Below, piece by piece: positions 10,821 through 47,324 of a stretch of 53,241 nucleotides of DNA. Location: positions 2,227-55,467 of the forward strand of contig JAYEPA010000001.1 in the NCBI GenBank assembly GCA_034723545.1, written 5' to 3'. The notes below the pieces were generated by a model. The model searched no databases. It was not told the DNA's origin and saw only the letters and a program-made list of their open reading frames with translations. Within the stretch, counting starts at the first letter, position 1, and each line of letters opens with the position of its first letter. This stretch comes from Thermodesulfobacteriota bacterium. GTDB taxonomy: Bacteria > Desulfobacterota > Desulfobulbia > Desulfobulbales > SURF-16. A program made the translations under genes and the position numbers.

Positions 10821-10989
10821 GTAACTATTCAGCTGCACCCCATCTTCGCCCATTTAGAGCTTCTCGAGTAACATTAGTACGCTTCAAATCTCTAAATGAA
10901 CAGGTAAGCGTAGACTCCGAATATGGGGCACATCTGAACAGTTACAGACCAAGTTTTTCGTAACATTTTTATACACGCTGAATAGTTAC
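10821..10989. mobile_element. Family A MITE (IS66-like ends)
   Basis: GTAACTATTCAG...CTGAATAGTTAC; 8-bp TSD GAAATAAG on both sides; micro-insert at 10902-10918. Confidence 0.9.
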
Positions 10990-11008
10990 GAAATAAGTTA
11001 GTTCTGTC

Positions 11009-11160
11009 GTATCTATTCAGCTACACCCCATCTTCGTCCATTTAAGCCTTTTCGAATAGCACCAGTATGCTTCAAAGTCTTAAATAAACGAATATGGGGC
11101 ACATCTGAATAGATACATTCGGTGGTTTTGGTTATTTTGAGATACTCGCTGAATAGTTAC
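11009..11160. mobile_element. Family A MITE (152-bp copy without insert)
   Basis: GTATCTATTCAG...CTGAATAGTTAC; TSD GTTCTGTC. Confidence 0.9.
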
Positions 11161-11247
11161 GTTCTGTCTAGTACCAAGGCACTTACACCCGCCAAGCGAG
11201 TACTGAAAAGAGTCCTGAAAGCTAATGTGGTTTTCCGCTTTAGTGGG

Positions 11248-11964
11248 TTAGGGAAGGTGGAATCCACCCTCGTGCAGGGAAGAGGCCTTATCCGCCAGCT
11301 GTTTTAATTTACTTTTAATCCGGGACAGCGGAACCAGGGACGGAATAACGGGCATACTCTCCTCAATGGCCTTAGGTGGATGGAGCTTCATCTTTTTTTC
11401 CATACTTTGGGAAAAATCCGTTTGAATTCCTCCATCCATGCCGGAAGCTGGTGATCCAGTACTGTCGATACTGCGGAGAAAGCTCATGATACTACCAATA
11501 TCGTTTTTTTGATAAAACAGTTTGATTTCCTCTTCAATGATTTCTCGGCTTTCCAGCAGTTCAGCATATTTTTCCCGGTAGGTTTCAACATGGTCCACCA
11601 GCATTTCATAGCAGTCCAGCACCAGATTCTTAAAACGGCCGGATTGAGTCAATCCCCGTGTTTTCACTCCTGCAAAAACTTTTTTTCTTATGGTTGGAGA
11701 CTGCAGCAGATAGGGATCGAAAAATATCTTTTTACCCAGTCCAGAGAGATCCAGAAATTTACGGATCAGACCATCGTCCTGGAGAAGGATGTACAGGCGA
11801 ACCAGATCCTGGATGATTTTATGCTCCACCGTGATTGAGGAAAAATGAAGCTCTTTGGCTAATTCTTCCTTATCCTCTTCAATGAGCTTACGAAAACCGA
11901 AGTAGCGCTCCGCAAGCTCCTTTTTGATTTCAAAGCTGAGAACTTTTGCAATATCTTCTGTCAT
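11248..11964 (-). CDS. Hypothetical protein, divergent from dnaG
   Basis: 238-aa ORF with strong SD AGGAGGG. Confidence 0.8.
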   Translation of the reverse strand: MTEDIAKVLSFEIKKELAERYFGFRKLIEEDKEELAKELHFSSITVEHKIIQDLVRLYILLQDDGLIRKFLDLSGLGKKIFFDPYLLQSPTIRKKVFAGVKTRGLTQSGRFKNLVLDCYEMLVDHVETYREKYAELLESREIIEEEIKLFYQKNDIGSIMSFLRSIDSTGSPASGMDGGIQTDFSQSMEKKMKLHPPKAIEESMPVIPSLVPLSRIKSKLKQLADKASSLHEGGFHLP

Positions 11965-12109
11965 ATTTCCCTCCTGGAAGCCTGTTTTTCTGTTTCTCAG
12001 TATAGTACCGATTTTTTGACAATCGATTTTATGGCCGGAAAGCGCCCCCTTGAAACATCAGGAGACAGGGTTTAAAAAAAACATTTTCAGATTTCGTAAA
12101 ATGCCTTAT

Positions 12110-12269
12110 TTAGTGCCTTACACCTGAAATCCTGTAATAAAAAACAAGAAATAAAAAAAATTACTTTTAAAATAAATGTACACCTACTGTTAAGGCACTT
12201 ACACCCGCCAAGCGAGTACTGAAAAGAGTCCTAAAAAATCTGATGTTTTCTTCCGCTTTAGTGGGTTAG
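12110..12269. mobile_element. Family B repeat, copy 2 (uninterrupted)
   Basis: TTAGTGCCTTA...TAAGGCACTTA followed by cacccgccaagcg...ccgctttagtgggttag. Confidence 0.7.
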
Positions 12270-12271
12270 GA

Positions 12272-12521
12272 TATAGTTGCGTAATCAAACCAGGTGACAA
12301 AATTTGACGCTTGAGCTGACATTTTGTAATATGTTGATATTGTTATTGTTTTAGTCAATATTTGCCTATCTCGTTTCCATATTGATCTACGGCATGGTTT
12401 CGACTGTAGGGGCAACCCTTGTGGTTGCTCTTTTTTGATTGCCACGCAGGGAAAGGTACCCACAAGGGGCACCCCTACGATTCGTGATTATTTTAATTCC
12501 ATACAAGTTTACGAAACTATA
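12272..12521. mobile_element. Putative MITE with 13-bp TIRs enclosing a REP doublet
   Basis: TATAGTTGCGTAA / TTACGAAACTATA (12/13 inverted match). Confidence 0.5.
12406..12478. repeat. GTAG-class REP doublet
   Basis: GTAGGGGCAACCCTTGTGGTTGCTC ... GGTACCCACAAGGGGCACCCCTAC inverted pair. Confidence 0.75.
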
Positions 12522-12581
12522 CTATCTTGCTTCTGATTATGCATCCGCCTTTTTTTGCATGGCGGATGAACCTAGAAAATT

Positions 12582-14351
12582 ATGACGACAGCCTTCTCTC
12601 AAGACAACACGGCACAGCTGGTTAAAGATGCGGCGGATATCGTCGATGTGATCGGCGAGCAAGTCAGTCTGCAAAAAACAGGGATCAATTATAAGGGGTT
12701 ATGTCCGTTTCATTCCGAGAAGACCCCCTCTTTTACGGTGAATCCGGAAAAAGGGATTTTTCATTGTTTTGGTTGCGGTGCAGGCGGCGATGTCTTTACC
12801 TTCATGATGAATTTTCATCAGATGACTTTTCCGGAAGCCCTGAAAGAGCTGGCTGGAAGATATCATATCCAGTTACCCGAGCAGAAATTATCAGCAACGG
12901 ACCAAGCCCGCCTTAGGAAGAAAGCCAGGCTTTATGAAGCCAATGAAAAGGCGGCAGACCTGTATCATGATTTTTTATTGCATCAGCCTGGTGCCCGGGC
13001 AGCCAGGGAATATTTAGAGAAAAGAGGGGTTCCCCCTGACATTGTTACATCCTTTAAGCTTGGCTATGCGCCCGAACGCTGGGATTTTCTTATCAAAGCC
13101 CTGAGGAGCGCCAATATCAGCCCTGAAACTGCGGCTGATGCGGGGCTTGTTGTGGAAAAGAAGCAAGGCGGTCATTATGATCGGTTTCGTGACCGGATTG
13201 TCTGTCCTATTTTTGATGTCAGCGGCCGGGTGATCGCCTTTGGCGGCCGGATTCTCGGCAGTGGTGAGCCGAAATATCTGAACTCTCCGGAAACCTTGCT
13301 TTTCAACAAAAGTCGTACATTGTACGGTCTTTATCAGAATAAGCAAAAAATTCGAAAAGAAAATCAGATTGTTCTGGTTGAGGGTAATTTTGATTTATTG
13401 TCTTTGGTGGCCCACAACATCGGTAATGTCTGCGCTCCCCTGGGCACGGCCCTGACCCCGCATCAGGTCAAAATTTTAAAAAGATATGCTTCCGGTGTGA
13501 TCCTGCTGTTTGATGGCGATGCCGCTGGTCTCAAAGCGGCAATGAGGGCGGTGCCTCTATTTTTGACCGAACAGCTTGATGCGCGGGTTGTTCTTTTGCC
13601 GCCTGATCATGATCCCGATACCTTTGTCAGAGCCTTTGGCGAAAAACAGTTAGAGAAAGAGATTGCCATGGCCCGATCCCTGCCGGAATTTGTTTTTGAG
13701 CGTCTGGTGGAGGAGCACGGCCTGACCTTGGAAGGAAAAGGGAAAATTGTCAATGAGTTGAGACCCATCATTAAAAGCATTGGCGACTGGAATCTGCAAC
13801 GTTCTCTTTTTGTGTCACATTTCAGTCGGAAACTGGGTCTGCAGCCGGAGCAGCTTTTAAAAAATGATAAACAATCTGTTTCGTCAACAGCGTCCGCCGG
13901 GCATAAGCGGAAAAATTGTTCTCCTGATCTGCCGTTGAAACAGAGGCAGATTCTGGAATTTTTACTCTACTATCCTGAGTTTTTTGAACCGTTTCTTGAC
14001 GCGGGTATCGAAAAAGTCATGGATCACGACAGCTGCCAAGTGATTCTTAATTGCATGAAAGACATTGTAGCGGCCGAGGGAAGTGCAGTCGTGGACCTGC
14101 TTCTGGAACGGCTTTCCGGCAGGGAGAGGTCTCTGATCTCCAGTCTTCTTGTCAAAATGCCTGCCTTTTCGGAGGAGAAGAAAAATGAGGTAGCCGGTGA
14201 GATGACAAATTGGATTAAGTATCATATTCTTGACCTGAAAAAGGACGAAATAACTCGGCGGATTAATGAAGCTCATCAGGCGAATGATGTGGTACTGCTC
14301 ATGGAACTCCTTGAAAAGAAAAAAGAAATGGACGAAACGTCGACAACATAA
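12582..14351 (+). CDS. dnaG: DNA primase
   Basis: Zinc finger CPFH..KTPSF..HCFGC, DRFRDR, KYLNSPET, TOPRIM EG and FDGDAAG. Confidence 0.97.
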   Translation: MTTAFSQDNTAQLVKDAADIVDVIGEQVSLQKTGINYKGLCPFHSEKTPSFTVNPEKGIFHCFGCGAGGDVFTFMMNFHQMTFPEALKELAGRYHIQLPEQKLSATDQARLRKKARLYEANEKAADLYHDFLLHQPGARAAREYLEKRGVPPDIVTSFKLGYAPERWDFLIKALRSANISPETAADAGLVVEKKQGGHYDRFRDRIVCPIFDVSGRVIAFGGRILGSGEPKYLNSPETLLFNKSRTLYGLYQNKQKIRKENQIVLVEGNFDLLSLVAHNIGNVCAPLGTALTPHQVKILKRYASGVILLFDGDAAGLKAAMRAVPLFLTEQLDARVVLLPPDHDPDTFVRAFGEKQLEKEIAMARSLPEFVFERLVEEHGLTLEGKGKIVNELRPIIKSIGDWNLQRSLFVSHFSRKLGLQPEQLLKNDKQSVSSTASAGHKRKNCSPDLPLKQRQILEFLLYYPEFFEPFLDAGIEKVMDHDSCQVILNCMKDIVAAEGSAVVDLLLERLSGRERSLISSLLVKMPAFSEEKKNEVAGEMTNWIKYHILDLKKDEITRRINEAHQANDVVLLMELLEKKKEMDETSTT

Positions 14352-14366
14352 TATCATAGAGATTAT

Positions 14367-14787
14367 GTAACTATTCAGATGTGCTCCATCTTCGCCCATA
14401 TTTGGTCTTCTCGAATAGCACCAGTGCGGAGTCTTCGCTTCGCTCCGCTTACCGTTCAAAGCCCAGGTAAGCGTAGACTCCGAAATGAACGAATATGGAG
14501 CACATCTTAACAGTTACAGGCCGAGTTTTTCGTAACATTTTCACATACGCTTCTTCTAAGTAACAAGATTCTGATTAGCCTGTATAAAAAACGAAGAATC
14601 AGCACGATAAGTTAAAATTGGCCACTTACGTCATCCCGGCATGTTTTTAGCCGGGATCCAGGATGGTGTGTGTGGCTACTTTCTGGATTCCGGCTAAGGA
14701 CATGCCGGAATGACGATATAATTTATTTTGTTACTTGTAAAATAGATGCCGGGATCTTTACCCCCGGTTGCCTTGCTGAATAATTAC
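14367..14787. mobile_element. Composite family A MITE with two micro-inserts and nested repeats
   Basis: GTAACTATTCAG...CTGAATAATTAC; TSD GAGATTAT; internal end copy ends at 14517. Confidence 0.88.
14629..14715. repeat. CGTC-class REP doublet inside an AAGTAACAA...TTGTTACTT-bounded segment (14558-14736)
   Basis: CGTCATCCCGGCATG...GCCGGGATCCAG / CTGGATTCCGGC...CATGCCGGAATGACG. Confidence 0.75.
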
Positions 14788-14968
14788 GAGATTATTTACA
14801 ATAAAATTGAACGTTTTAAATTTTGAGGACACATCACAGACGATAGATCTCGTTAAAAAGCCAACCGTTTAATATTGTAACTTATTTATTACACATGCAA
14901 TAGTTCCATTCCTAGACGTGTGGCCTGAGATTCTAGGTTCAGGATCCCGATGTCTGGACGATAGAAAA

Positions 14969-16513
14969 ATGCGTAAAAAGCACAGAAAAACCGGCGAAGA
15001 GCCCATGGATGATTTAACCTCAATATTTGATAATAAAAAGGTTGAGGATTCAAATCAGGATCCGTCCAATATTGATGACGATGAATTGGCAATGATTCTT
15101 CCTAAAAAGGGGAAGCGTCGCAGTAGGAAATCGCTGTCATCTCCCAAGGAGGCAAGCCCTAAACTTGACCCTGTAAAAGCCTACTTGCGGGAAATGGGCG
15201 CCGTTGCCCTTTTGAGTTCAGCAGAAGAAACGAAAATTGCCAAGCGTATTGAACAGGGTGACAGGCAGATTCAAAAAACGATTCTGGCTGTACCGACAGC
15301 TTTGGCAAGCCTTGCCAAAATGAAGGAAGATCTTCTTTCGGGCAAACGGCAGATTTCCGATATTCTGCGTGGCCTGGATGAATCCGACCATGAAGGAATC
15401 AGGGCACGGCACGAGCAGTTTCTTTGGCAGATCGGAGAAGCAGAACGAATTGACCGTGAACGAGAAGCCTTGCGGGCCGATCTCCTTGATCCTGAAACTG
15501 ACAAGGGAAAGGCCGTAAAAATTATGGTTCGTCTTGAAAGATGTAATTTTACGATTGCCAGCCTTTTTCAGGATGATCGAATTTGTGCCAAGTATCTTTC
15601 TGAGATTATAGAGAATGTTAAGGGGCTCGCAAAAAGGTTTTCCGCTATTATGCTGAAGATGAAAAAACAGCCGGAAAAAGCGGAGAAACTGGAAGTGATG
15701 CTGTGTGAATTTGAGGATGAACATGGGATTGATCAAGAGTCGCTGGCCCAGATCATGGAAGGGATGGCCCTGGGGGAAAAGATTTCCAGTGTAGCCAAGC
15801 AGGAATTGACCCGCGCCAATCTTCGTCTTGTTGTCAGTGTGGCAAAAAAGTATGCAAATCGCGGTCTGCAACTTCTTGACCTGATTCAGGAAGGAAACAT
15901 CGGCCTGATGAAGGCAGTTGAAAAATTTGAATACCGCCGTGGTTATAAATTCAGCACCTATGCCACTTGGTGGATCAGGCAGGCGATTAACAGGGCCATT
16001 GCCGATCAGGGCCGAACGATTCGTATTCCGGTGCACATGATCGATACCATCAACCGGTTGATGAAGGGGGCAAAAGAATTTTCCCGGGAGCATGGCCGTG
16101 AACCAACGCCTGAGGAAATGTCGGAGCGGCTTGATCTTGATCTGGAAAAGGTGCGTAACATTCTTAAGATTACCAAGGAGCCCGTTTCTCTCGATACGCC
16201 AATAGGAGACAGTGAGGACAGTTTTTTAACTGATTTTATTGAAGATGTTGACGCTGTTTCTCCACATGAGGCAACAATAATGCATGATTTGCGCCAGAAT
16301 CTCAGGAAGGTAATGTCATCGTTGACGCCGCGGGAAGAACGGGTGCTGCGTATGCGATTCGGGATTGGCACGCGATCGGATTTGACCCTGGAGGAGGTTG
16401 GTAAAAGTTTTTCCGTGACCAGGGAGCGCATCCGGCAAATTGAGGCAAAGGCGTTGAAAAAGCTGAAACATCCATCCCGGCGGAAACAGCTTGAGAGTTT
16501 TATGAAAGACTGA
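14969..16513 (+). CDS. rpoD: Primary sigma factor sigma70 (start uncertain: 14918, 14969 or 15005)
   Basis: [63 protein letters not shown]; follows dnaG. Confidence 0.95.
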
Positions 16514-16549
16514 TCGTTTTTTTCTGCTTTTTCCCCCAAAGATATTCTC

Positions 16550-16602
16550 CTGAACAGTTACGGAACGGTTATGCCAATTTGGCGGTCCACCTGAATAGAT
16601 AC
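16550..16602. mobile_element. Family A remnant (spacer module only)
   Basis: CTGAACAGTTAC-29 nt-CTGAATAGATAC; closely matches the reverse complement of 35398-35454. Confidence 0.75.
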
Positions 16603-16607
16603 CTGAT

Positions 16608-17717
16608 ATGAAAGGAAATCTGCAAGACTGGATCAGTCTCTATTTAACTCCGGGCCTGGGGTCAACCTGGTGTATCCGGCTTGTGGATTATTTTGGCGGT
16701 CCTCAAGAAGTTTTCAAGGCGACATTAAAAGATTTTCAGCAGATTTCCGGGCTCAGAAAAAATGCGGCTGCCGCCTTGGCCGCAGGCCCTGATTTAGTCC
16801 GAGTGGAAGCTGAAATCAAGAGAGCGAAAAAAAGTGGAGTGAGTATTATTCCTCTCCATGATTCCTCTTATCCATCCCGTTTGCGTGAAATTCACAATCC
16901 ACCATTTCTTCTTTATGTCAAGGGGGATCCCGCAGTTCTCGATCAGGCCTCGGTGGGTATTGTCGGGGCCAGGGCGGCAACCATTTATGGGCAGAGGATA
17001 GCCCATGATTTGGCAACCAGACTTTCCAGGCGGGGGCTTTCTATTGTCAGCGGTCTGGCCCTGGGGATTGATACGGCCGCACACCAGGGCACTCTGTCAG
17101 CCGTCGGCAGAACTGTTGCTGTGCTGGGATGCGGGCTAGATGTGGTTTATCCTCCCCGGAACAGAAAACTGTACGACCAGATTCCTGTCAATGGAGCTCT
17201 GGTGTCGGAATATCCTTTTGGTACCAAGCCTGACGGTTTTCGTTTTCCCGCCAGAAATCGGATTATCAGCGGTCTGTGTCTGGGGATTGTGGTGGTAGAG
17301 GCGGCCAGTCGCTCCGGCTCGCTGATCACGGCGGAACTTGCCTTGGATCAGGGCCGGGAGGTTTTTGCCGTGCCGGGCCGAATTGATTCCAGCAAGAGCG
17401 AGGGAAGCCACCGGCTCCTCCAGGAGGGGGCTAAGCTGGTTCATACTGTTCAGGACATTATTGAAGAACTTCCCTGGTCCGGCCCTCAGCATGTTTCCCA
17501 AGCAGAGAAAAAACAAAGCAAAGGGGGGCAAGTGCTTTCCGAGGAAGAAAGGCGTCTCTTTACTTTTCTTGATATTTATCCCATGACTGTTGATGAGATT
17601 ATCACTAAAAGCGGATTTCCAGCCCACAAGGTCAGCGAGTTGTTGTTGATGCTGGAGCTGAAAGGGGTTGTGGAGGCGCTGCCGGGTAAGCAGTTTCATA
17701 AAAAAGAGGAAAGTTAA
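16608..17717 (+). CDS. dprA: DNA-processing protein DprA
   Basis: YPSRLREIHNPP, IVSGLALGID, FPARNRIISG, SGSLITA; adjacent to topA. Confidence 0.95.
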   Translation: MKGNLQDWISLYLTPGLGSTWCIRLVDYFGGPQEVFKATLKDFQQISGLRKNAAAALAAGPDLVRVEAEIKRAKKSGVSIIPLHDSSYPSRLREIHNPPFLLYVKGDPAVLDQASVGIVGARAATIYGQRIAHDLATRLSRRGLSIVSGLALGIDTAAHQGTLSAVGRTVAVLGCGLDVVYPPRNRKLYDQIPVNGALVSEYPFGTKPDGFRFPARNRIISGLCLGIVVVEAASRSGSLITAELALDQGREVFAVPGRIDSSKSEGSHRLLQEGAKLVHTVQDIIEELPWSGPQHVSQAEKKQSKGGQVLSEEERRLFTFLDIYPMTVDEIITKSGFPAHKVSELLLMLELKGVVEALPGKQFHKKEES

Positions 17718-17773
17718 GCATTAAAAGAATTTTCCAGTTGACTTTCACTGGTTGAATTTGTTTTATCGGTTCT

Positions 17774-17944
17774 GTAAATATTCTGCTAGCATCCCAATTT
17801 CGTCTGATTCGCCTTACTCACATATGACTAATATTGCTCGCAAGGCGACTTGAACGAACTTGGGGCTGACACCGCTACGCTGTTATCCAAACATTTACAA
17901 TTTATTGGCTTTAGCACTGATTTAACTCCAACTCGAATGTTTAC
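17774..17944. mobile_element. Family A-like MITE, subfamily A2 (171 bp)
   Basis: GTAAATATTC...GAATGTTTAC; TSD TCGGTTCT; near-identical inverted copy at 41305-41475. Confidence 0.9.
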
Positions 17945-18023
17945 TCGGTTCTGCTGATTTAGCTGATCCAGTTAGTCCAACCAAATAAAACCAGTTCAAC
18001 TAAATAAAACTAATAAAACTAAT

Positions 18024-20312: not shown

Positions 20313-20422
20313 CTGCTTAGGTTTTTAGGCTGTAGGCTATTGGTTTTGGAAATTTTCGGAGTAAGGCGCTAAAAAATTTTATTGTCGGTATTCATCTTTT
20401 TTATAGCAGGGAGGGAATCGTT

Positions 20423-20779: not shown

Positions 20780-20831
20780 GCGTTCACAGGAGAAGGCTGG
20801 TAACACTGTGCTCCACCCTGTGAACAGTTAC
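20776..20831. mobile_element. Short IS66-like inverted-repeat element
   Basis: GTAAGCGTTCACAGG / CCTGTGAACAGTTAC (13/15); overlaps the stop codon of the upstream gene. Confidence 0.55.
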
Positions 20832-20845
20832 AGCCCGGAGTTAGG

Positions 20846-21019
20846 GGTTATTTTCAGCTGCACCCCATCTTCGCCCATTTAGAGCTTCTTGAGTAACATT
20901 AGTACGCTTCGAATCTCTAAATGAACAAGAGGAGTCTCGCCAACTCGCTTACCGGGGGCACATCTGAACAGTTACAGTCTGGAGTAAAGGGAAATTTCCA
21001 GCCTACGCTGAATAGTTAC
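20846..21019. mobile_element. Family A MITE with degenerate left end
   Basis: Interior nearly identical to the 10821 copy; micro-insert at 20931-20954; no TSD found. Confidence 0.85.
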
Positions 21020-21069
21020 AGTAAATGTTGCTTTTTTATTGACAGAAGCCGTGTCCCACCAATAATTTG

Positions 21070-21100
21070 TTGCCCCTTTGCCCCTTTGCCCCTTTGCCCC
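21070..21100 (+). repeat. Octamer tandem repeat (TTTGCCCC x4)
   Basis: ttgcccc tttgcccc tttgcccc tttgcccc just past the pyrC stop. Confidence 0.8.
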
Positions 21101-21106
21101 CTCTAT

Positions 21107-35397: not shown

Positions 35398-35598
35398 ATA
35401 ACTATTCAGGTGGGGCCACCAAATTGGCCTAACCTCCGTTCCGTAACTGTTCAGATGTGCTTCATATTCGTTCATTCGGAGTCTCGTTCCTCACTTACCT
35501 GGGGCTTTGAACGGTAAGCGGAGCGAAGCGTAGACTCCGCACTGGTGCTATTCGAGAAGACCTAAATGGGCGAAGATGGAGTGCAGATGAATAGTTAC
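35398..35598. mobile_element. Family A MITE (inverted) with two micro-inserts
   Basis: ATAACTATTCAG...ATGAATAGTTAC; TSD AATATTTT. Confidence 0.9.
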
Positions 35599-36652: not shown

Positions 36653-36821
36653 ATAACTATTCAGCGTAGGTAAAATATTCCGAAAAATTCGGTCTGTAAC
36701 TGTTCAGATGTGCTTCATATTCGTTCATTTCGGAGTCTACGCTTACCTGGGCTTTGAAGCATACTAGTGTTATTCGAGAAGGCCAAATATGGGCGAAGAT
36801 GAAGTGCAGCTGAATAGTTAC
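36653..36821. mobile_element. Family A MITE (inverted) inserted into the 5' end of aroK
   Basis: ATAACTATTCAG...CTGAATAGTTAC; TSD AAAAAAAC; micro-insert at 36732-36748. Confidence 0.9.
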
Positions 36822-37352: not shown

Positions 37353-37361
37353 AAATAAAAC

Positions 37362-37553: not shown

Positions 37554-37589
37554 ATAATTCGTAATTAACCAACCACAGGCAACAATTAA

Positions 37590-38660: not shown

Positions 38661-40264
38661 GGAGCCGAAAAAATATCGTGAAAGAACAAAAATATCCGTT
38701 GAAAACGATCTGGATGATCAGCCGGGAGTATGACGGCCTGGCCGGTGCAGGAGGGGTAAAGGATGTTTGCCGCCAGCTTGCCGAAGCCCTGGTCGCGGAA
38801 GGGAAAAATGTCAGCGTTATTCTGCCGTTTTATGGGTTCATGAAACTGGAAGAGACCGGCTTCAGGCTGTTTGATTCCTTTCAGGTTGATATGAACTATG
38901 TCGGCGTGGAACGCAGGGAGCAGGTGCAGATTTGGATCAGACAGCACGAGGACAAACCGACAATCTATCTGGTTGACGCGGCACGCTATCAGGAAAAGAA
39001 ATCCGTCTACACCTATACTGCCGAGGATGAGGCCGAAGATCCCGCCCATGTTCAGGGCACGGGCCATTATGATTACTTTGCCATGAATGTTCTGCTGCAG
39101 AAAACGGCAATTGATCTCATGCTCTGCCTGGGAGAAAAGGTGGATCTCATTCATTGTCATGATGGTCATACCGCCCTGTTGCCGGCCATGATTAAGGAAA
39201 ATGAGGGATATCGCCATTATTTTAGAAAAACGGGCCTGGTGGTGACCATCCATAATGCGGGATTGGGTTATCATCAGGAAGTGGCGGATTTGCCTTTTGC
39301 CAAAGTCGTTTCCGGCTTGCCTGGAAAGGTGCTTGCCAGAAATTTGCTGAAGGGCAGCTTTGACCCCTTTCTTGCCGCTTCCTCCTATGCTGTTCTTAAT
39401 ACCGTCAGTGAAAATTATGCCCGTGAGCTGCGGGAAACAGATGATGATGAACTGACGGGATTTCTGGGCCACATCCTGCTTTCCAGGGGAGTGACGCTTG
39501 AAGGTGTGACCAACGGCATCTCACCGGCCGATTTTGATACCCGAGAGCATGAAAAGCTCGGCATCGACGCCGGCTATTCGGTGATGGCTGGAGATTTTGC
39601 CGGTAAGATTATCTGTCGGCAAAAACTGATCCAGGATATTAACGGCAAAAAATTGACTCATGTTCAGCAGAACGGCAGCCTGACCCAGGCAGATGACGTG
39701 CCGCTTTTGACCCTGATCGGTCGTCTGACCGCCCAGAAAGGGGTGGATAAATTGATCGGCGCTCTTGAAACACTGTTGCCCACGGACAAAGAATTTCAGG
39801 TTTTGATTCTCGGAAGCGGTATCAGGGAGATTGAAGACGGATTGCTCCGGTTGACGAAAAACAGTGCAAACAAGGGACGGGTCTGTCTGTTGCGGGGCTA
39901 TGATCCTGGGCTTGCGAACCGGATTTATGCGGCTGGAGATTTTTTTCTTGTTCCGTCGAGATACGAGCCCTGTGGCCTGACGGATTATATTGCCCAGCTT
40001 TTCGGTAACCTTCCCATTGTTCATCATATCGGCGGGCTGGTGAAAGTAATTGACGGCAAAACAGGATTTACCTATCAGGATCACAGTTCCGCTGCTCTTA
40101 TGGGCGCCATGCAGAAGGCGATTCGCGTCTATCGGAAGCAGAATGGCCGGATCAAAGAAATGCAGCTGCAGGCTGTCACAACGATTTCAGAAAAATATAC
40201 CTGGAAAAAAATTGTCCATCGTTACCTGCATCTCTACGGCAAGGCTCTGGATATGGCCGGATAA
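38657..40264 (+). CDS. glgA: Glycogen synthase-like glycosyltransferase (GT5)
   Basis: HCHD, TIHN..Y, TVSENYA, GRLTAQKG, PSRYEPCGL; atypical N-terminal GAGGVKDV. Confidence 0.8.
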   Translation: MRSRKNIVKEQKYPLKTIWMISREYDGLAGAGGVKDVCRQLAEALVAEGKNVSVILPFYGFMKLEETGFRLFDSFQVDMNYVGVERREQVQIWIRQHEDKPTIYLVDAARYQEKKSVYTYTAEDEAEDPAHVQGTGHYDYFAMNVLLQKTAIDLMLCLGEKVDLIHCHDGHTALLPAMIKENEGYRHYFRKTGLVVTIHNAGLGYHQEVADLPFAKVVSGLPGKVLARNLLKGSFDPFLAASSYAVLNTVSENYARELRETDDDELTGFLGHILLSRGVTLEGVTNGISPADFDTREHEKLGIDAGYSVMAGDFAGKIICRQKLIQDINGKKLTHVQQNGSLTQADDVPLLTLIGRLTAQKGVDKLIGALETLLPTDKEFQVLILGSGIREIEDGLLRLTKNSANKGRVCLLRGYDPGLANRIYAAGDFFLVPSRYEPCGLTDYIAQLFGNLPIVHHIGGLVKVIDGKTGFTYQDHSSAALMGAMQKAIRVYRKQNGRIKEMQLQAVTTISEKYTWKKIVHRYLHLYGKALDMAG

Positions 40265-40270
40265 CATGAA

Positions 40271-40419
40271 GTAAATATTCGACAGCACTCCACAGGAAGG
40301 CGATCAGGCTACCCCGCATACCGATGTGTAGCAAGTTAGCCTGCTTAACTCCCTGTGAAGCGCTGTCAAACATTTACAAGTTGGTGGTTTGAGTTATTTT
40401 CATTGAGCCGAATGTTTAC
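40271..40419. mobile_element. Family A-like MITE, subfamily A3
   Basis: GTAAATATTCG...CGAATGTTTAC; TSD AACATGAA; internal end copy ends at 40377. Confidence 0.88.
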
Positions 40420-40454
40420 AACATGAAAAGCACTTATTTTCTGAAGATAGTATC

Positions 40455-41279
40455 ATGACTGAGCTAAGGCAACAGCAATCCCCCGTTGTTTTATCAAACC
40501 GATGGTTTGCCCAGCGACATGATTTTTTTGTCAAAAATGTGTTTGAAGGGTTTTATAAAAATCGGACCTTCTTCATTGGGCTGTATGATCGGTATAACAA
40601 TACCGGGCAGATCTCGTTTTCTGATATAGCCGAACTGGTCGGTGTTGAAAATCACAAAGGGTTGTGGCTCGTCAAGGATCGCTGTCATCAGCTCTGGCGC
40701 GATGGTGAATCCCGGTTTGACAGCAATGGTTTTTTTCTTGATTGGGTGATCGGTTCTCTTTTTCATGAGGCTGTCAAGCTGAAAGAAAATATCTATATGT
40801 TTCACTTCTATGCGCCCCAGGCGGATGAGATTAAAAAGCAGTTCAAAAATGAAATAATGGGAAGCGATGCAGCATGCCTGAGTTTTATGGAAGGAACCGA
40901 GGTGGAGATTCGGAAGCAGATGGATAATCTTGCCTTGCTGTTTGGCCGGGCCAATTATCTGCTGCGCTCCATGCTGGTCAGCCAGTCCGGCAATGTGTTG
41001 TTAATTCGCTATCTGATCGAAAGAAAAGATGTTGTACAAGAACTTTGGTCCGAGTCCCTGGAAGAACTTTTTGACGATATGTATCCCGGCGGGCCGGAGC
41101 AGGGGTTTTGTCTGGCCGGGAAAAACTATCTTGACGGACATTGGCATGACAGGGCATTTATGGCCTATTCCGCCGCCTTGGAGATCAACCCGAAATGTGA
41201 CGATGCTCTGCGCAGGATCTCTCAGATCAAGATCACGTTACGGCATAAGGAAGAATTCGGCCAGGTTGAATTAAATTGA
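40455..41279 (+). CDS. Hypothetical protein with a C-terminal TPR-like helix pair
   Basis: 274-aa ORF; AYSAALEINP TPR signature. Confidence 0.75.
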   Translation: MTELRQQQSPVVLSNRWFAQRHDFFVKNVFEGFYKNRTFFIGLYDRYNNTGQISFSDIAELVGVENHKGLWLVKDRCHQLWRDGESRFDSNGFFLDWVIGSLFHEAVKLKENIYMFHFYAPQADEIKKQFKNEIMGSDAACLSFMEGTEVEIRKQMDNLALLFGRANYLLRSMLVSQSGNVLLIRYLIERKDVVQELWSESLEELFDDMYPGGPEQGFCLAGKNYLDGHWHDRAFMAYSAALEINPKCDDALRRISQIKITLRHKEEFGQVELN

Positions 41280-41304
41280 ACAAAAAATTCTACACGATAA
41301 AATG

Positions 41305-41475
41305 GTAAACATTCGGGTTGGAGTTAAATCAGTGCTAAAGCCACTAAATTGTAAATATTTGGATAACAGCGAAGCGGTGTCAGCTCCAATTTAGTTCAAG
41401 TCGCCTTGTGAGCTATATTAGTCATATGTGAGTAAGGCGAATCGGACGAAATTGGGGTGCTAGCCGAATATTTAT
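41305..41475. mobile_element. Family A-like MITE, subfamily A2 (inverted), next to the gap RBS
   Basis: GTAAACATTCG...CGAATATTTAT; TSD ATAAAATG. Confidence 0.9.
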
Positions 41476-41494
41476 ATAAAATGGGAGACAGGTT

Positions 41495-42499
41495 ATGACG
41501 GTAAAGGTTGGAATTAACGGATTTGGACGAATCGGCAGAAATATTTTCAGGGCCATTGATAAGGATGAAACATTTGCGGATATCGAGGTCGTAGCCATCA
41601 ATGACCTTACCAACAATGAAACACTGGCCCATCTGCTCAAATATGATTCGGTTATGGGTGTGTATGAGCGGGATGTGAAGGCAGATGAAAAAGGCATTGT
41701 CGTTGATGGCCGGCATATCGATATTTTTAATCACCGCAATCCAGCCGAGATTCCCTGGGGCAGTATCGGCGTGGATTATGTCATTGAGTCAACCGGTCTG
41801 TTCCGTGACGCTGAAAGTGCCGGCGCTCATCTTGATGCAGGTGCTAAAAAAGTGGTGATTTCAGCACCGGCCAAGGGAAAAATTAGAACCATTGTCATGG
41901 GTGTCAATGAGCATGAGTATGATCCAAGCAAGGACCATATTGTTTCAAATGCGTCCTGCACCACCAACTGCCTTGCCCCGGTTGCCAAGGTTATTCTTGA
42001 TCATTTCGGCATCAAAAAGGGCCTGATGACAACGATCCATGCCTATACTAATGATCAGCGCATTCTTGACTTTCCCCACTCGGATCTGCGCCGGGCCAGG
42101 GCTGCCGCTGTTTCAATGATCCCGACCGGGACAGGGGCTGCCGCCGCTGTTTCCCTGGTTATTCCGGAGCTGAAAGGAAAATTTGACGGCCTGTCTGTCC
42201 GGGTGCCGACACCCAATGTCTCCCTGGTGGACATGGTTATTGAAGTGGAGCAGGAAACCACGGTTCCGGAAGTGAATCAGGCCTTGAAAGACGCAGCTGA
42301 CCGCTTTCTCGGCTACTCGGACGAGCCCCTGGTTTCCATCGATTACCAGGGCAACCCTCACTCCTCGATTGTTGATGCCATGTCCACTAAGGTCATCGGC
42401 AACATGGTCAAAATTATGACCTGGTATGATAATGAATGGGGCTATTCCAACCGGATGCTGGATTTGATTCTGTTCATGGAAAGCCAGAAACCGTTGTAG
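41495..42499 (+). CDS. gap: Type I glyceraldehyde-3-phosphate dehydrogenase
   Basis: GINGFGRIG, ASCTTNCL, TGAA, RVPT, WYDNEWGYS. Confidence 0.97.
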   Translation: MTVKVGINGFGRIGRNIFRAIDKDETFADIEVVAINDLTNNETLAHLLKYDSVMGVYERDVKADEKGIVVDGRHIDIFNHRNPAEIPWGSIGVDYVIESTGLFRDAESAGAHLDAGAKKVVISAPAKGKIRTIVMGVNEHEYDPSKDHIVSNASCTTNCLAPVAKVILDHFGIKKGLMTTIHAYTNDQRILDFPHSDLRRARAAAVSMIPTGTGAAAAVSLVIPELKGKFDGLSVRVPTPNVSLVDMVIEVEQETTVPEVNQALKDAADRFLGYSDEPLVSIDYQGNPHSSIVDAMSTKVIGNMVKIMTWYDNEWGYSNRMLDLILFMESQKPL

Positions 42500-42557
42500 A
42501 GGAATCAGTTAGATTGGTTTTATTGGTTGGATTTGTTTAAATAGTTCTTCAACCAGT

Positions 42558-42711
42558 GTAAATATTCGGGTAGCACCTCATCTTCGCCCATTAGGCCCAG
42601 CTCGAGTAGCACTAGTACGCTTCGCTGCCCCAAATGAACGAATATAAGGCACTACCCAAATATTTACAGTTCCAGGTTGTTGCGATTTTTTCGTATAACC
42701 CGAATATTTAC
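42558..42711. mobile_element. Family A MITE with variant ends, inserted in a 9-mer repeat tract
   Basis: GTAAATATTCGGG...CCCGAATATTTAC; TSD CAACCAGT. Confidence 0.9.
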
Positions 42712-42765
42712 CAACCAGTTCAACCAATCTAACCAATTCAACCAGTAAAACCAGTTTAACCAATC
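42712..42765 (+). repeat. Nonamer tandem repeat (NAACCART[CTA], 6 units), with inverted units at 42508-42538
   Basis: caaccagtt caaccaatc taaccaatt caaccagta aaaccagtt taaccaatc; a similar tract flanks the element at 17748-18022. Confidence 0.75.
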
Positions 42766-42778
42766 CAACAAAAAAACC

Positions 42779-45700
42779 ATGCCCCCCATCCAATCAGATG
42801 CCCTGAAGGCAAATCTCGAGGAAACCGCAGTTGACGAGGTCGTCATCGATCCCGCCATGGAGGTTCTCATCGAGATTGTCCACGATATGAAGGGAATTCG
42901 CAACTCCATCGAAGAGTTGCTCTATGAGATTCATCATCCCTTCCGAAACTGGAACATGATTGTTCCCAGACTGCGGACATTTGTTCTGAAAAACGAGAGA
43001 TTGTATCATCGTCATCCTATGGGTGCCGAGGCCTTCAGCCGTTTTACCGATATCTTTTTTCTGGCCCTGCAAGAGGCTGGTAAAAACCATACCCTGCTGG
43101 CCCTGACTATGGAATCTCTCCTTGCCTATTTTGCAAAGAGCGTAACCCTGGAACCAAAAACCCTGCCGCGTTTTGAACCTGCCCATGCCGCCTGTTTTGA
43201 AAAATTGCGCGGCCTTGATGATCAGATCATTATGTACATGGTTCAGGGTCGTCATCCCATGAAGAAAATTGCCATCTTTCTTTTGCACTACAGTGAGGAG
43301 GAAAACCAGGCCTATGATCTGCGGCCCGTGGGATGTCTCATGCAGCGGGTGCTGACGTTAAATTACGAATACTGGCTGGCGGAAGAGGATCCCCTGCCCT
43401 GGTTTCTGGCCGAGTGCAGCGATATGTGCAATGACTGGCAGGCCGGCAAACTTTTCCATGCTGTTTCCCATGAGCAGCTCACGCTCCATCTGGACGCTCT
43501 TGGCAGGATTGATATTGAAACATCACCCGGTCGGTTGCTGGAGATCCTTGCCCTGCCCTCCCATATGGATCTTGTCCGCCTGTACAAGGATATCCCGAAA
43601 AAACTGGCTGAATTGCAGAAAAACGGGGAATCCGGAGAGGGAAAGGACAAAGCGGACCGGTTTGCCGAGAACCGGAAATTGCTTTTTCTCTTTCGGATCA
43701 TGAGGACCTCCGGTCTTTACCTGATTCACGAAGAGACCCTGCGGGAAATCAACCGCAGCCTGGTGCAGCTGATTCGCCTCCAGACCTTTGAAGAGATTAA
43801 ATCCTTTTTGCTCACCACGCTGCATCTCTTGAAGGCCAATGTCAGAAAATATCCCCATACCTCCATGCAATGCATTCAGGTTCTGGGAACCGAGGTCTTC
43901 AAGCGCGGCAATAGCAGGCTTGTGGAAACCTTTCTTTTTGAAGTTGTTCGTTTCGGTTTCCAGTTCGCCAATGTCGTCGGGGTTGATGAGGATTGGCAGC
44001 CCATAACAAATCCTGCTCATCTGGCTAATATTCGCGTCTGGCTGAACATGATCATGCAGGAGCCCAAATGGTGCTCCATCCTGTTCTCGGCCCTGATCAT
44101 TAACCTCAATCTCTCCGGAACCTGCGTCAAGGATACCGACCTCTTTCAACGTGACATTACCAGGCTTCTGAATCATCCCATTGAGCCGGTTTATAACCTG
44201 GTAAAACAGTTTGCCAAGATCATGCCGGTTTTCTTTAACGAAATCGGCGCGGAAGGAAAGCTGCGTGATGTCTCCACCGAGATTGACGAGACCCACAAGC
44301 GAAAGGATCTCCTGATCCATTTTCTCCGCAAGCAGAGCCATGTGGAAAGCTCAAATCTCATTGTCGATTTTATCCGAGCCATTATCATCTTCTGGAAAAC
44401 AAGGGACAAGGAGGAGTTACGGGATTACCTGCCCGATGAGATCCTGAGCCAGGTGGCGACCGAGGGTGTTTTTGTTAATGATCTTCATTTGCTGGTCAAC
44501 CGAGCCTTTGCGCTGCCTAATATCAGCACGGAGAAAGATCTGCTTGACTGGGACCAGCAGCACATCGACCTTTTTTTGGCTGAGCAAACCGACCTGAACC
44601 CGGTCGAGGTCAACCGGTTTTCCTTGCTGGTCAAGATGTACAAGCTGCTGGATCAGAAATACAATCTGGGCCTGCAGCAGTTTCGCCAGCAGCTTGAGCA
44701 GGCAATTAACTCCGGCTTTCCGGAGATGGAGGAACTGCTGGCCGATCTGGAGATCTGTGACACCTTCCAGTGTCTTGGCGCCCTTCTTGACGGACTGGAG
44801 AGATTGAAGGATATTATCCAGAGTGACGAGGTTTTTCCCGTGCAGGAGGATATCTATCATAAGAGGCACATTGCCGTGGATATTCCCTCGGTTTATGGTC
44901 GTTACAGCGAGAAAAAATTTGATGCCCTGGGCCTGACTTTTCGGCTGGAAAGTTTGGCCAACATCTATCTGGAAAAGTTGCCTTCCACGGTGAATCTTTC
45001 TTTTATCACCCGGGCCACTTTTATTGACATCGTCAAATGTCTCAAGCTGTACCTGCGAGCCTTGAATATTGACGGCATTTCCAGCCGCAGGCTGCAGACT
45101 TATGTCTCGCTGCTGTCAAGTTCCCTGAAACTCAGGCGGTTTTCCTATACCCAGTATCTGGACATTCTGCGCGGTCTTTCAGAAGGGGTCAAGGATGTCA
45201 TTTATGCCTATTACACCAATATTCACCAGAATAATCTTTCTATTATCATTCCCCAGATCGGTTCAAGAAATTTACTGGCAAAATACCGCAATCTCTGGCA
45301 CCAGGCCGCAGTCCATGGGCAGGGGAAAGTTCCTGTCGACGATGTGGTGGATTTGCCGACCAAGGCCAGTATTCATCGTTTGTCCGAGGCCTTTCTCCGT
45401 GATCTGATTGCCACCACTTTTGGACTGCAGCATCTGGATAATTTTATCACCAGGATCTACCAGACCCTGGAGCGGCAAATAAAAGTGCTGGACGAAGAAC
45501 GCCTTGACCTTCTGATGACCTATAATCCGGAAAGGGTTATTCATCTGCTGCACCGGCGGAATCCCGAAACCCATAATTTGATTCTCCTCGGCAATAAGGG
45601 TTTTAATCTGACCCTGCTGGCCGATGATGATAAACCGGTGCCGCCTGGTTTTATCATCACCACCGAAATTTTCCGCTGCTGGCCGGTGGTCAAGGATTTT

Positions 45701-47068
45701 TTCAAGGCCCGTGACGAGTTCATGAGCCAGATCCGCCAGGCCTTAACCCAGATTGAAGATAAGACAGGCCGACTTTATGGCGCTCCGGACAGGCCGCTGT
45801 TGGTGTCAGTACGCAGTGGCGCCGCCGTTTCCATGCCAGGCATGATGGCCACTATCCTTAATGTCGGATTGAACAGGGACATTGTCGAGGGTTTTGCCCA
45901 GAGCACGGGTCAGACCTACCTGGCCTGGGACAATTACCGGCGATTTCTGCAGACCTGGGCCATGACTCTGGGCGTGGAACGGGAAACTTTTCAGGCCTTG
46001 ATGAACGAGGCTAAAGCCAGACATCAGGTGAGCGTAAAAAGGCTGTTTACCGCCGGCCAGATGAAAGAACTTGCCTTAAATTATCAACAGACCATCCGTG
46101 ATCTCGGCATCACCATTCCAGACGATCCCTGGCTGCAGCTCATCGGGGCGGTTGAAATGGTGCTGAACTCCTGGAGTGCCGAAAAAACAAAGGATTTCAG
46201 AAAATTGATGGATGTCTCCGACTCATGGGGCACAGCCGTGATTGTTCAAAGTATGGTTTTTGGAAATATGGGCTCTCACTCCGGCAGCGGTGTGGTTTTT
46301 ACAGCCCACCCCTATCGTAAGGTGCGGCGGGTTGCCCTCTGGGGTGATTATGCCAGCAGTGATCAGGGCGAGGATATCGTCGGCGGTTTGGTCACCACCT
46401 ATCCCGTCTCCGTGGAGCAGGCCGAGATCGATGGCCGGCCCATAAAATTTACCCTGGAAAAAAAATCACCGGAAATCTATGATGAACTTCTTGCCATAGC
46501 CCGTGACCTGGTTTACGAAAAGCGATGGAATCCCCAGGAAATCGAGTTTACCTTTGAAGGTCCCAGTCGCTCTGATCTTTATATTTTGCAGACCAGGGAC
46601 ATGATCACCATCAAGAAAAAAGAGCGTTTTGATGTTTTTGTGGATGACGCAGAGTCGGGTAGTGATTTCTTGGGTAAGGGTATTGGAGTCAGTGGCAGTG
46701 CCCTGTCCGGCCGGGCCGTTTTTACGGGGGAAAATGTTAAACAGCTCCGCAGGGAAGACCCGGAGACTCCACTTATCCTTATCCGCCAGGATACGGTCCC
46801 CGAGGACATTCGGGAGATTTCACTTGCAGACGGACTGCTCACGGCCCGCGGCGGCCAGACATCCCATGCCTCGGTGGTGACCTTGCGTCTGGAGAAAACC
46901 TGCGTGGTGGGCTGCCGCACTCTGCAGGTGTATGAGACCGATGAGCGCTGCGAAATTGACGGTCAGATCATCCGCTTTGGCGATCCCATCAGTATTGACG
47001 GCAGAAAGGGGCTTTTTTTGAAAGGAAGTCACCCCGTGGAAGAGAAGATTCATATTCTGCCGATTTAA
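42779..47068 (+). CDS. PPDK-like dikinase: large N-terminal region + ATP-grasp + phospho-His swivel domain, no pyruvate barrel
   Basis: LGNKG, PVPPGFIITT, LVSVRSGA..SMPGMM.T, VQSMVFGN, QGEDIV, LQTR, GGQTSHASVV. Confidence 0.85.
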   Translation: MPPIQSDALKANLEETAVDEVVIDPAMEVLIEIVHDMKGIRNSIEELLYEIHHPFRNWNMIVPRLRTFVLKNERLYHRHPMGAEAFSRFTDIFFLALQEAGKNHTLLALTMESLLAYFAKSVTLEPKTLPRFEPAHAACFEKLRGLDDQIIMYMVQGRHPMKKIAIFLLHYSEEENQAYDLRPVGCLMQRVLTLNYEYWLAEEDPLPWFLAECSDMCNDWQAGKLFHAVSHEQLTLHLDALGRIDIETSPGRLLEILALPSHMDLVRLYKDIPKKLAELQKNGESGEGKDKADRFAENRKLLFLFRIMRTSGLYLIHEETLREINRSLVQLIRLQTFEEIKSFLLTTLHLLKANVRKYPHTSMQCIQVLGTEVFKRGNSRLVETFLFEVVRFGFQFANVVGVDEDWQPITNPAHLANIRVWLNMIMQEPKWCSILFSALIINLNLSGTCVKDTDLFQRDITRLLNHPIEPVYNLVKQFAKIMPVFFNEIGAEGKLRDVSTEIDETHKRKDLLIHFLRKQSHVESSNLIVDFIRAIIIFWKTRDKEELRDYLPDEILSQVATEGVFVNDLHLLVNRAFALPNISTEKDLLDWDQQHIDLFLAEQTDLNPVEVNRFSLLVKMYKLLDQKYNLGLQQFRQQLEQAINSGFPEMEELLADLEICDTFQCLGALLDGLERLKDIIQSDEVFPVQEDIYHKRHIAVDIPSVYGRYSEKKFDALGLTFRLESLANIYLEKLPSTVNLSFITRATFIDIVKCLKLYLRALNIDGISSRRLQTYVSLLSSSLKLRRFSYTQYLDILRGLSEGVKDVIYAYYTNIHQNNLSIIIPQIGSRNLLAKYRNLWHQAAVHGQGKVPVDDVVDLPTKASIHRLSEAFLRDLIATTFGLQHLDNFITRIYQTLERQIKVLDEERLDLLMTYNPERVIHLLHRRNPETHNLILLGNKGFNLTLLADDDKPVPPGFIITTEIFRCWPVVKDFFKARDEFMSQIRQALTQIEDKTGRLYGAPDRPLLVSVRSGAAVSMPGMMATILNVGLNRDIVEGFAQSTGQTYLAWDNYRRFLQTWAMTLGVERETFQALMNEAKARHQVSVKRLFTAGQMKELALNYQQTIRDLGITIPDDPWLQLIGAVEMVLNSWSAEKTKDFRKLMDVSDSWGTAVIVQSMVFGNMGSHSGSGVVFTAHPYRKVRRVALWGDYASSDQGEDIVGGLVTTYPVSVEQAEIDGRPIKFTLEKKSPEIYDELLAIARDLVYEKRWNPQEIEFTFEGPSRSDLYILQTRDMITIKKKERFDVFVDDAESGSDFLGKGIGVSGSALSGRAVFTGENVKQLRREDPETPLILIRQDTVPEDIREISLADGLLTARGGQTSHASVVTLRLEKTCVVGCRTLQVYETDERCEIDGQIIRFGDPISIDGRKGLFLKGSHPVEEKIHILPI

Positions 47069-47147
47069 GGAATCGAATGAAGTAGCTTTAAAAGGCACAT
47101 TTCCAGAAAGTGGCAGTAATTGGGCAATGTATACACTAGAGAAATTG

Positions 47148-47324
47148 GTAATAGTTCACCAGCACCCCATCTATGCACGATCAGGCCGGCTCACAGGACT
47201 ACTATCGTTCGCTGGCCTGATCGGAGTCTCCGCTACACTATGCTTACCTGCACATATATGAGGCACTGGTAAACTATCATATTTCGGAATTCCCCCAAGG
47301 ATTTAGCCCTTGGTGAGCTGCTAC
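47148..47324. mobile_element. Family A-like MITE, subfamily A4, with micro-insert
   Basis: GTAATAGTTCACCA...TGGTAAACTATCAT...TGGTGAGCTGCTAC with the same geometry; no TSD retained. Confidence 0.7.

Follow-up and report, generated by a model that had tools for sequence, protein, structure and literature searches.

To our knowledge, the only description of very small mobile repeats so far dates from 2008 and concerns Nostoc-type cyanobacteria. Elhai et al. (2008, Genome Res 18:1484) reportedly distinguished the small dispersed repeats (SDR) SDR1–8 of Nostoc and relatives, for example the 21-nt SDR5, and these repeats are said to nest also in MITEs (miniature inverted-repeat transposable elements) and heptamer repeats. 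The papers that cite them outline SDR as dispersed sequences of about 20 nt that are thought to be mobile, are confined to one lineage and have an unknown mechanism (PMC2884548, PMC4390886, PMC5861425, PMC13756078, PMC3116915). According to these outlines, SDR5 was inserted precisely in HIP1 (PMC4390886), SDR occur in tandem as well as singly (PMC2884548), and the account in PMC5861425 places no SDR outside the Nostocaceae; a 2026 paper, in its part on SDR5, still gives the function of this repeat as unknown. Here we describe a micro-element of comparable size from a bacterium of the Desulfobulbales, an order of sulfate reducers, which was noticed in a window of 53,241 nucleotides. The window is the whole stretch of DNA that was analysed and corresponds to contig C1, positions 2227–55467, of a 3.32-Mb, 307-contig metagenome-assembled genome (MAG) that is 93.8% complete.

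The micro-element is a discrete DNA unit, 5'-GGTAAGCG-core-AGACTCCG-3', which is 17 nt long when the core is a single nucleotide, and it occupies, in one piece, the point between the two A's of (C)A^A; the target is not duplicated. The block is present or absent as a whole, with exact borders and a 3-nt target, in unrelated hosts and in broken reading frames; therefore, a pre-defined unit has been inserted repeatedly. Its genomic contexts, almost invariant ends and tandem arrays were likewise observed. As for what lies behind these insertions, the balance tips slightly towards a very small non-autonomous mobile unit that is moved in trans and has multiplied mainly by hitch-hiking. A preliminary description of the window had already proposed a very small mobile unit. 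Presence and absence as a block, many positions, both orientations, several repeat families and empty sites all spoke for that proposal, while the palindromic target and the enzymes named in it were not supported.

The micro-element resembles SDR, as the citing papers describe them, in several ways. It measures 17–30 nt in the genome, where it has 190 copies (SDR are about 20–27 nt), it is inserted precisely at a defined point with empty counterparts (57 of 74 comparisons), and it is found in tandem (arrays at 7 loci) as well as singly. The likeness to SDR, already suggested in the preliminary description, was upheld on these three points of size, precise insertion and tandem copies. It is also restricted to one lineage, and its flanks are also heptamer-rich. 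On the other hand, the SDR descriptions set it apart by lineage (Desulfobulbales, Thermodesulfobacteriota) and by target, which is (C)A^A and not HIP1; HIP1 is nearly absent from the window's genome, with 9 GCGATCGC in 3.3 Mb. The build of two 8-nt ends around a variable seam also differs, SDR being compared here by description only. As far as can be told from this comparison, the micro-element would represent a second family of SDR-like very small repeats, unrelated to SDR and in another phylum, and it is one of the smallest apparently mobile pieces of DNA known. The literature that was searched yielded only SDR papers and no description of the unit or of Desulfobulbales repeats or MITEs.

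In the window, the pattern GGTAAG-N(2-25)-AGACTCC gave 8 matches against a mean of 0.01 in 100 dinucleotide shuffles, none of which reached 8. All eight copies reported earlier were recovered at their places and strands (10903–10918 +, 14428–14453 −, 14466–14481 +, 20931–20953 −, 35478–35499 −, 35513–35538 +, 36732–36747 − and 47223–47248 −). The constant ends and varying core, the occurrence at five or more different hairpin positions, on both strands and in at least two repeat subfamilies, and the hairpin copies at 11009 and 42558 that lack the unit were also borne out. All eight lie within long imperfect hairpin repeats with the ends GTAAC.ATTCAG...CTGAA.AGTTAC or a related form. The statement that no copy occurs outside hairpin elements is correct for the window; it fails for the genome and the order, where other hosts were found. 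With the borders as mapped below, the features are as follows.

10903..10919, + strand: micro-element of 17 nt, core T, in the right arm of a hairpin MITE, site ACA^AAT; empty paralogue of 97.8% identity
14427..14453, − strand: micro-element of 27 nt, core GAGCGAAGCGA, close to the apex of a hairpin MITE; pairs with the 14466 copy in the predicted fold
14466..14482, + strand: micro-element of 17 nt, core T, site CCA^AAA
20930..20953, − strand: micro-element of 24 nt, core AGTTGGCG, last base T and not G; empty paralogues of this site class differ by 2–3 further bases
35477..35499, − strand: micro-element of 23 nt, GGTAAGTG-AGGAACG-AGACTCCG, with one change in the left end
35513..35539, + strand: micro-element of 27 nt, core GAGCGAAGCGT
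36731..36747, − strand: micro-element of 17 nt, core T, site CCA^AAA; empty paralogue of 98.9% identity
47222..47248, − strand: micro-element of 27 nt with a diverged left end (GGTAAGCA), in a host of a different MITE subfamily
10821..10945, no strand: host hairpin MITE (GTAACTATTCAG...CTGAACAGTTAC), IS66-derived; parent insertion sequence with the same terminal repeat at G000:C36:123-1854
14367..14517, no strand: host hairpin MITE with two micro-element copies
35443..35598, no strand: host hairpin MITE with two micro-element copies
36696..36821, no strand: host hairpin MITE with one micro-element copy
11009..11116, no strand: hairpin MITE without micro-element, the empty reference
42558..42667, no strand: hairpin MITE of another subfamily, without micro-element

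An oppositely oriented pair within one MITE is able to base-pair, as the fold of the 14427 and 14466 copies indicates. No Rfam family was matched in the window.

The borders were mapped by excising each copy in silico and searching the joined flanks against the genome, which gave junction-spanning matches for 177 of the 183 usable copies; comparisons were limited to the 74 copies whose best non-self match had at least 93% identity. In 57 of them, the filled and empty paralogues differed by one inserted block, GGTAAG..AGACTCC plus G, i.e., GGTAAG..AGACTCCG, with zero sliding freedom, and several of these pairs were 98.9% identical over 90 nt. The other 17 comparisons showed different block boundaries or multiple gaps. 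Two site classes could be recognised in this group, the 27-mer close to the hairpin apex and that to which the 20930 copy belongs, the empty relatives differing by a few more bases. The final G was found in 184 of the 190 genome copies. The true borders therefore lie one base to the right of those drawn in the preliminary description, and the leading A or C belongs to the target. Because of this shift the insertion site is A^A, usually CA^A, as indicated by both the empty-paralogue borders and the flank counts; the earlier assignment to C^G was due to a G/A polymorphism in the empty copies. Among 83 contexts that were not biased by the search seed, C stood at −2 in 54, A at −1 in 74 and A at +1 in 61, and the other positions were near background. 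The target bases were neither duplicated nor deleted in the empty-paralogue comparisons, which agrees with the absence of a clear duplication noted before. Empty-site counterparts were found at many positions, and a single ancestral position was not supported.

The core was analysed in the 173 genome copies with both 8-mers exact. It measured 1 nt in 96 copies, 0 nt in 2, 2 nt in 3 and 6–14 nt in 72, and the single-nucleotide cores were T in 64, C in 17, A in 14 and G in 1. The long cores are tandem copies of a central GCG(N)AG with a spacer of 3–4 nt, such as GCGAG-TAT-GCGAG and CGAG-GAA-CGAG in the window's genome and GCGGAG-CGCA-GCGGAG in another. The ends were compared with the centre in copies found through their MITE flanks alone, which are thus unbiased by the motif. 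At site c, 20 such copies showed 3 changes in 320 end positions, while position 9 was A in 10, T in 9 and C in 1; at site b, 13 copies showed no change in 208 end positions, with T in 8 and C in 5 at position 9. More than one core variant, with short and long forms together, was present in 13 of 40 contexts, and copies in one conserved host family also differ in core. Hardly any variation affects the 16 end positions, in contrast to a hypervariable centre. Ends that are invariant across genera around a free centre point to a machine reading both ends, and a variable seam with local duplications points to a central joining step or to a centre that is not read. Mutagenesis of the type found in diversity-generating retroelements was considered and dropped; the other template adenines do not vary.

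The left end GGTAAGCG and the right end read inward (CGGAGTCT) are unrelated, i.e., there are no terminal inverted repeats. The 17-mer has a folding energy of 0 kcal/mol, and shuffled sequences fold as well as the longer forms do; having no fold of its own, the 17-mer is not like the repetitive extragenic palindromes (REP). Solo left halves (83) and solo right halves (106) occurred at chance level, the means for letter-shuffled 8-mers being 91 and 102. The micro-element is all-or-none, with no truncated form. Other genomes have head-to-tail arrays of 2–4 units at 7 loci, whereas the window's genome has no such array. A seven-variant array at L125:1480-1700 (G121:C1) is located downstream of a 23S-5S rRNA operon and adjoins a 44-nt fragment of a second 5S gene; some of its left ends are TCAAAGCG in place of GGTAAGCG.

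The 190 copies in the window's genome, counted with a loose pattern, occupy 46 flank contexts, of which the six largest hold 123 copies. Together with 137 loci of other genomes, 395 copies in 147 contexts were obtained. By sequence comparison, the hairpin MITEs of the window likely descend from an IS66-family element of 1.73 kb (G000:C36:123-1854; L151:123-1854), which has perfect 18-nt terminal repeats TGTAACTATTCAGCGTAA and one 484-aa open reading frame with DDE_Tnp_IS66 and DUF6444 domains. IS66 elements typically have GTAA ends and 8-bp repeats. A related MITE at about 17775–17950 (GTAAATATTC...GAATGTTTAC) is flanked by the 8-bp direct repeat TCGGTTCT and has no counterpart in the sister genome; it showed the only clean target duplication seen for this MITE superfamily.

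The micro-element was also found in several other repeat families, in REP-like ATTCCCGC..GCGGGAAT palindromes of this and other genomes, in heptamer-rich stretches and in unique intergenic DNA. Removing 17 nt restored a 247-aa frame whose downstream half is RVT_1 (L013, reverse transcriptase of a group II intron), and at another locus a frame with rve in its upstream half (L123, IS3-type transposase). Two further loci carry copies inside group II intron RNA adjoining its D1D4-3 region (L127, L118). The micro-element is present in IMG/VR contigs as well, one of them with 4 copies; by a rough estimate the 18 viral-contig matches are about the chance expectation, but their flanks show that most are real copies.

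A host family of particular conservation is a hairpin of about 175 nt (L007:905-1095; L044, L158, L058, L213, L017), in which the unit has the same place in six loci; by record title these come from different organisms, and one is a viral contig. Fifteen base pairs of this hairpin are kept through compensatory changes, and the micro-element forms a one-sided bulge. No Rfam family was matched in it, and it may represent either a structured RNA or a MITE that has spread widely.

Two other kinds of context were seen. In phage-like contigs (L156, L160 and L162, all on one 49-kb IMG/VR contig, and L159/L161/L164/L165/L167/L170) the unit sits at GA^A sites within degenerate CGAACAA-type heptamer runs, and one such context is common to six contigs that stem from different metagenomes. 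A MITE of about 260 bp with the ends CAGACCTCGTAAAAAA.../...TTTAACGAGGTCTG, present in the G000 contigs C8, C18, C74, C115, C218 and C232, contains (GAACCTT)n heptamers followed directly by AGACTCCG, the right half of the micro-element, and one of its copies also carries a slightly mutated full unit at CTCA^AAA.

It had been proposed that the unit targets palindromic DNA. Stems of at least 5 bp occurred at 5.4% of the 147 contexts and at 4.6% of 5000 random CA^A sites, and the unit is also found in the rve and reverse transcriptase frames and in the group II intron; specific targeting of palindromes was therefore not supported, and targeting of hairpin loops was rejected as a rule. Single cases in terminator-like loops do exist. 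Tolerance together with hitch-hiking accounts no less well for the excess in hairpin MITEs.

The exact 18-mer was found in more than 113 stretches of a collection of 185,579 species, and among the matches listed (80), all had titles of Desulfobulbales type or of unclassified delta/Thermodesulfobacteriota. The proposed motif search in the genome and its relatives gave the 190 copies mentioned above and the 17-mer in 140 of 301 genomes sampled from the order, in 45 of 76 genera, with 1 to about 150 copies in the carriers. The reversed-pattern control gave 0 in every one of the 301 genomes, and none of 291 genomes sampled elsewhere in the phylum contained the 17-mer. Within single genera the copy number ranged from 0 to about 200, and in genus g26 only 3 of 28 genomes were positive. 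One near-closed genome holds 200 copies with cores of 0–16 nt, and along its 2.95-Mb contig a replichore or strand bias was looked for and rejected. Mirrored −/+ pairs about 102 bp apart are common in this genome; the core base differed in all 10 pairs read, so the members of a pair are not copies of each other. A MITE of the same genome holds three units, whose sites are CA^A, CA^A and GA^T.

Orthologous regions were compared with two same-genus genomes of about 91–93% identity. The window stretches 10757–11248, 14374–14948, 20785–21094 and 36654–36817 are missing or replaced in these two genomes. The MITE loci of the window were empty or differently occupied in both, and no orthologous filled/empty pair of the micro-element was obtained. 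The public sequencing runs, with no RNA run among those listed, are all Logan contigs, mostly of a few hundred bases, in which repeats draw in paralogous pieces; they gave nothing usable on the 17-nt block. One such contig, from a related strain, runs directly from 10757 to 11248 and thus lacks both MITEs. The MITEs of the window have moved since the same-genus species diverged.

Many separate insertions have taken place exactly between the A's of (C)A^A, in either orientation, into unrelated DNA, and the copy number then grew mostly passively through transposing host repeats, namely the IS66-derived hairpin MITEs and other families. We give nearly even chances to the more specific proposal of a non-autonomous 'nano-element' that is moved in trans by an enzyme encoded elsewhere. 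This protein, presumed to be confined to Desulfobulbales, would read only the two 8-nt ends, and a short, probably single-stranded, copy would be joined in where CA^A is nicked or broken. The centre would be either unread or a seam joining two halves, which would yield a centre of 0–2 nt or one with a tandem GCG(N)AG copy. A further possibility, which we regard as rather doubtful, is a true 'nano-transposon' or a unit built at the target, in which an order-specific protein or RNA-guided machine would add two 8-nt modules at a CA^A break. The seam would then be untemplated or locally templated, each insertion would have its own core, and other mobile elements would perhaps be preferred.

Several results weigh against movement in trans as proposed here. 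No mover enzyme was found in the tests of IS66, Y1/HUH and IS110. The element occurred in 53 of 110 IS66-positive and in 87 of 191 IS66-negative genomes (hand count), indicating no association. Y1_Tnp is present in 257 of the 301 genomes of the order and therefore discriminates nothing, and 14 of 20 listed Y1-negative genomes carry the element, one of them with 149 copies at 84% completeness. IS110 was absent from 2 of 5 carriers tested, one being a 3-contig, 100%-complete genome with 4 strict 17-mers and 12 copies with any core. These counts did not support the HUH/RAYT or IS110-type mover named in the preliminary description. We also know of no transposase that handles a substrate near 17 nt, which is far below what known transposases handle. 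Most copies sit at fixed positions in repeat families and so need no insertion of their own, and one unique intergenic 24-mer copy was identical in the sister species, movement not being directly observed. In trees of 140-nt flanks, filled and empty copies were intermingled to about the same degree as in shuffles (site c, with 20 filled copies: 18 changes, shuffle mean 19.4); being poorly resolved, these trees neither count events nor separate gain from precise loss. Moreover, excision footprints or jumps between templates would also produce an 8+N+8 build with a variable seam.

The three Y1 genes of the window's genome are of the 218–248-aa type, and one of them has its own, unrelated flanking repeats. 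At L148:480-1210 (G000:C248), a 218-aa Y1_Tnp gene is located between its own inverted repeats (GGGGACACCATACTTAATT), which are unrelated to the MITEs and the micro-element, and a partial duplicate of the 3' end of this gene is found at the contig start.

In our ranking the trans-mobilised nano-element leads; excision footprints and RNA-templated addition follow, and the last places go to a purely passive module and a host motif. Excision footprints, which we consider improbable, suppose a larger transposon with the ends GGTAAGCG.../...AGACTCCG that inserts at CA^A and exits through staggered cuts located 8 nt inside its ends, the two leftover 8-nt donor tails being joined with 0–2 extra bases or short templated fill-ins. 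P-element and Tc1/mariner footprints offer the analogy, as two joined ends with a variable, partly templated seam. The 8+N+8 build and the core lengths (0 nt in 2 copies, 1 nt in 96, 2 nt in 3, 6–14 nt in 72) are in line with such an origin, as are a core base that is mostly T or A and the tandem copies of the adjacent GCG(N)AG with their spacer of 3–4 nt, which resemble templated end-joining. However, the parent element was not found. The search for a long version with the same ends gave only 1 chance candidate in the window's genome, half elements were at chance level, no recurrent solo ends occurred in 1.04 Mb of loci from other genomes, and 18 'solo' left halves read in the near-closed 200-copy genome were mutated copies, MITE termini or genes. 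A long version enclosing an enzyme, which had been suggested as worth looking for, was thus found neither in the genome nor in the loci of other genomes nor in the near-closed genome. Ku was looked for in 5 high-copy carriers and found in none of them, the control with Bacillus subtilis being positive. Known footprints are far less uniform than the exact 8+8 nt retention seen here, and to build arrays of up to 4 units, insertion and excision would have to recur at a single point.

RNA-templated addition is likewise improbable in our judgement. It supposes that a reverse transcriptase primes on a ...CA 3' end at a nick and copies an RNA 5'-(U)CGGAGUCU-N-CGCUUACC(UG)-3', with end-to-end template jumps making the arrays and untemplated bases or jumps making the variable centre. 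Template jumping and untemplated addition are known for reverse transcriptases of the group II intron type. The target CA and A suit microhomology to the template ends, and the absence of target duplication and the head-to-tail arrays agree with this mechanism. Of 5 carriers tested, 4 have RVT_1, with group II introns and reverse transcriptases, and the element lies inside group II introns. Nevertheless, 5'-truncated copies were absent, half units being at chance level, and RVT_1 gave no match in the window's own 190-copy MAG, which is 93.8% complete and in which repeats may be unassembled. The template locus was not identified either; the sole context conserved across genera is the hairpin repeat, and neither this context nor the window contains an Rfam family. 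The closed genome G151 gave 48 RVT_1 matches, mostly in frames of 446–458 aa that represent a large group II intron expansion.

It seems very improbable that the micro-element is not self-mobile at all and is a module of repeats, spread by their transposition together with homologous recombination, gene conversion and arm-to-arm hairpin-templated copying. The concentration of 123 of 190 copies in the six largest contexts, the mirrored −/+ pairs about 102 bp apart in one genome and the repeat family with the element at the same place in six loci, among them different organisms by record title and a viral contig, would be expected of such a module. However, the contexts have only (C)A^A in common, the element is inserted inside rve and RVT_1 frames, a group II intron and unique intergenic sites, and the members of the 10 mirrored pairs read differ in core base. 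Barely credible is a motif that the host maintains by selection wherever a copy lies, for instance a protein binding site in two parts or a signal of the uptake type: 16 positions that are almost invariant across genera around a free spacer, and confinement to one order, would suit it, but there are 0 to about 200 copies within single genera (3 of 28 genomes positive in g26), and the unit arrives as an insertion and not by point changes, breaks reading frames and has a spacer of 0–14 nt. GAGTC-type nicking enzymes and a likeness to CAG|GTAAG splice sites or to the tRNA T-arm were considered and dropped.

Compared with other described systems, the micro-element shares with REP and the hairpin-forming REPINs (moved by RAYT, a Y1 HUH enzyme) that it would be a short, very numerous, non-autonomous unit moved in trans and found in or forming hairpins; it differs in being non-palindromic (0 kcal/mol), in showing no clear link to Y1_Tnp and in sitting inside other repeats. 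Like MITEs it is non-autonomous and multi-copy, and is present or absent as a block, but it has neither terminal inverted repeats nor target duplication and measures 17 nt against 100–300. Positions 2–8 (GTAAGCG) equal the tip of the IS66-type MITE ends in the window's genome and in G080, which may be due to the unit's origin, to mimicry or to chance, yet the presence of IS66 is not associated with the element. IS200/IS605 elements and palindrome-associated transposable elements (PATEs) also have asymmetric ends, no target duplication and insertion beside a short target word. IS200/IS605 needs subterminal hairpins and a target word of 4–5 nt, whereas the micro-element has no hairpin and a target of only 2–3 nt. 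It differs from IS110/IS1111 in that no long version was found and IS110 is absent from 2 of 5 carriers, and from excision footprints of the P-element and Tc1/mariner kind in lacking a detected parent and Ku, in its uniform 8+8 build and in its tandem arrays.

The anatomy of the micro-element is clean, with exact borders, a 3-nt target, invariant 8-nt ends, a hypervariable seam, arrays and hundreds of copies in one order. Its uneven copy number is what a gene-association search for the enzyme needs. Two of the motif-holding records are from named cultured strains, so the movement of 17 nt can be put to the test. Should every event form its seam afresh, the copies would record their own insertion history. 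If the unit were indeed a true nano-transposon or built at its target, it would rank as the smallest mobile DNA whose insertion chemistry is defined, by a mechanism without a described counterpart. The micro-element also breaks assemblies, disrupts transposase and reverse transcriptase genes and alters the hairpins of gene-adjacent MITEs.

Another abundant repeat was seen genome-wide, where 16-mers such as TATATCGTCATTCCGG and CCGGCTAAAAACATGC have 30–34 occurrences each; this repeat is unrelated to the micro-element.

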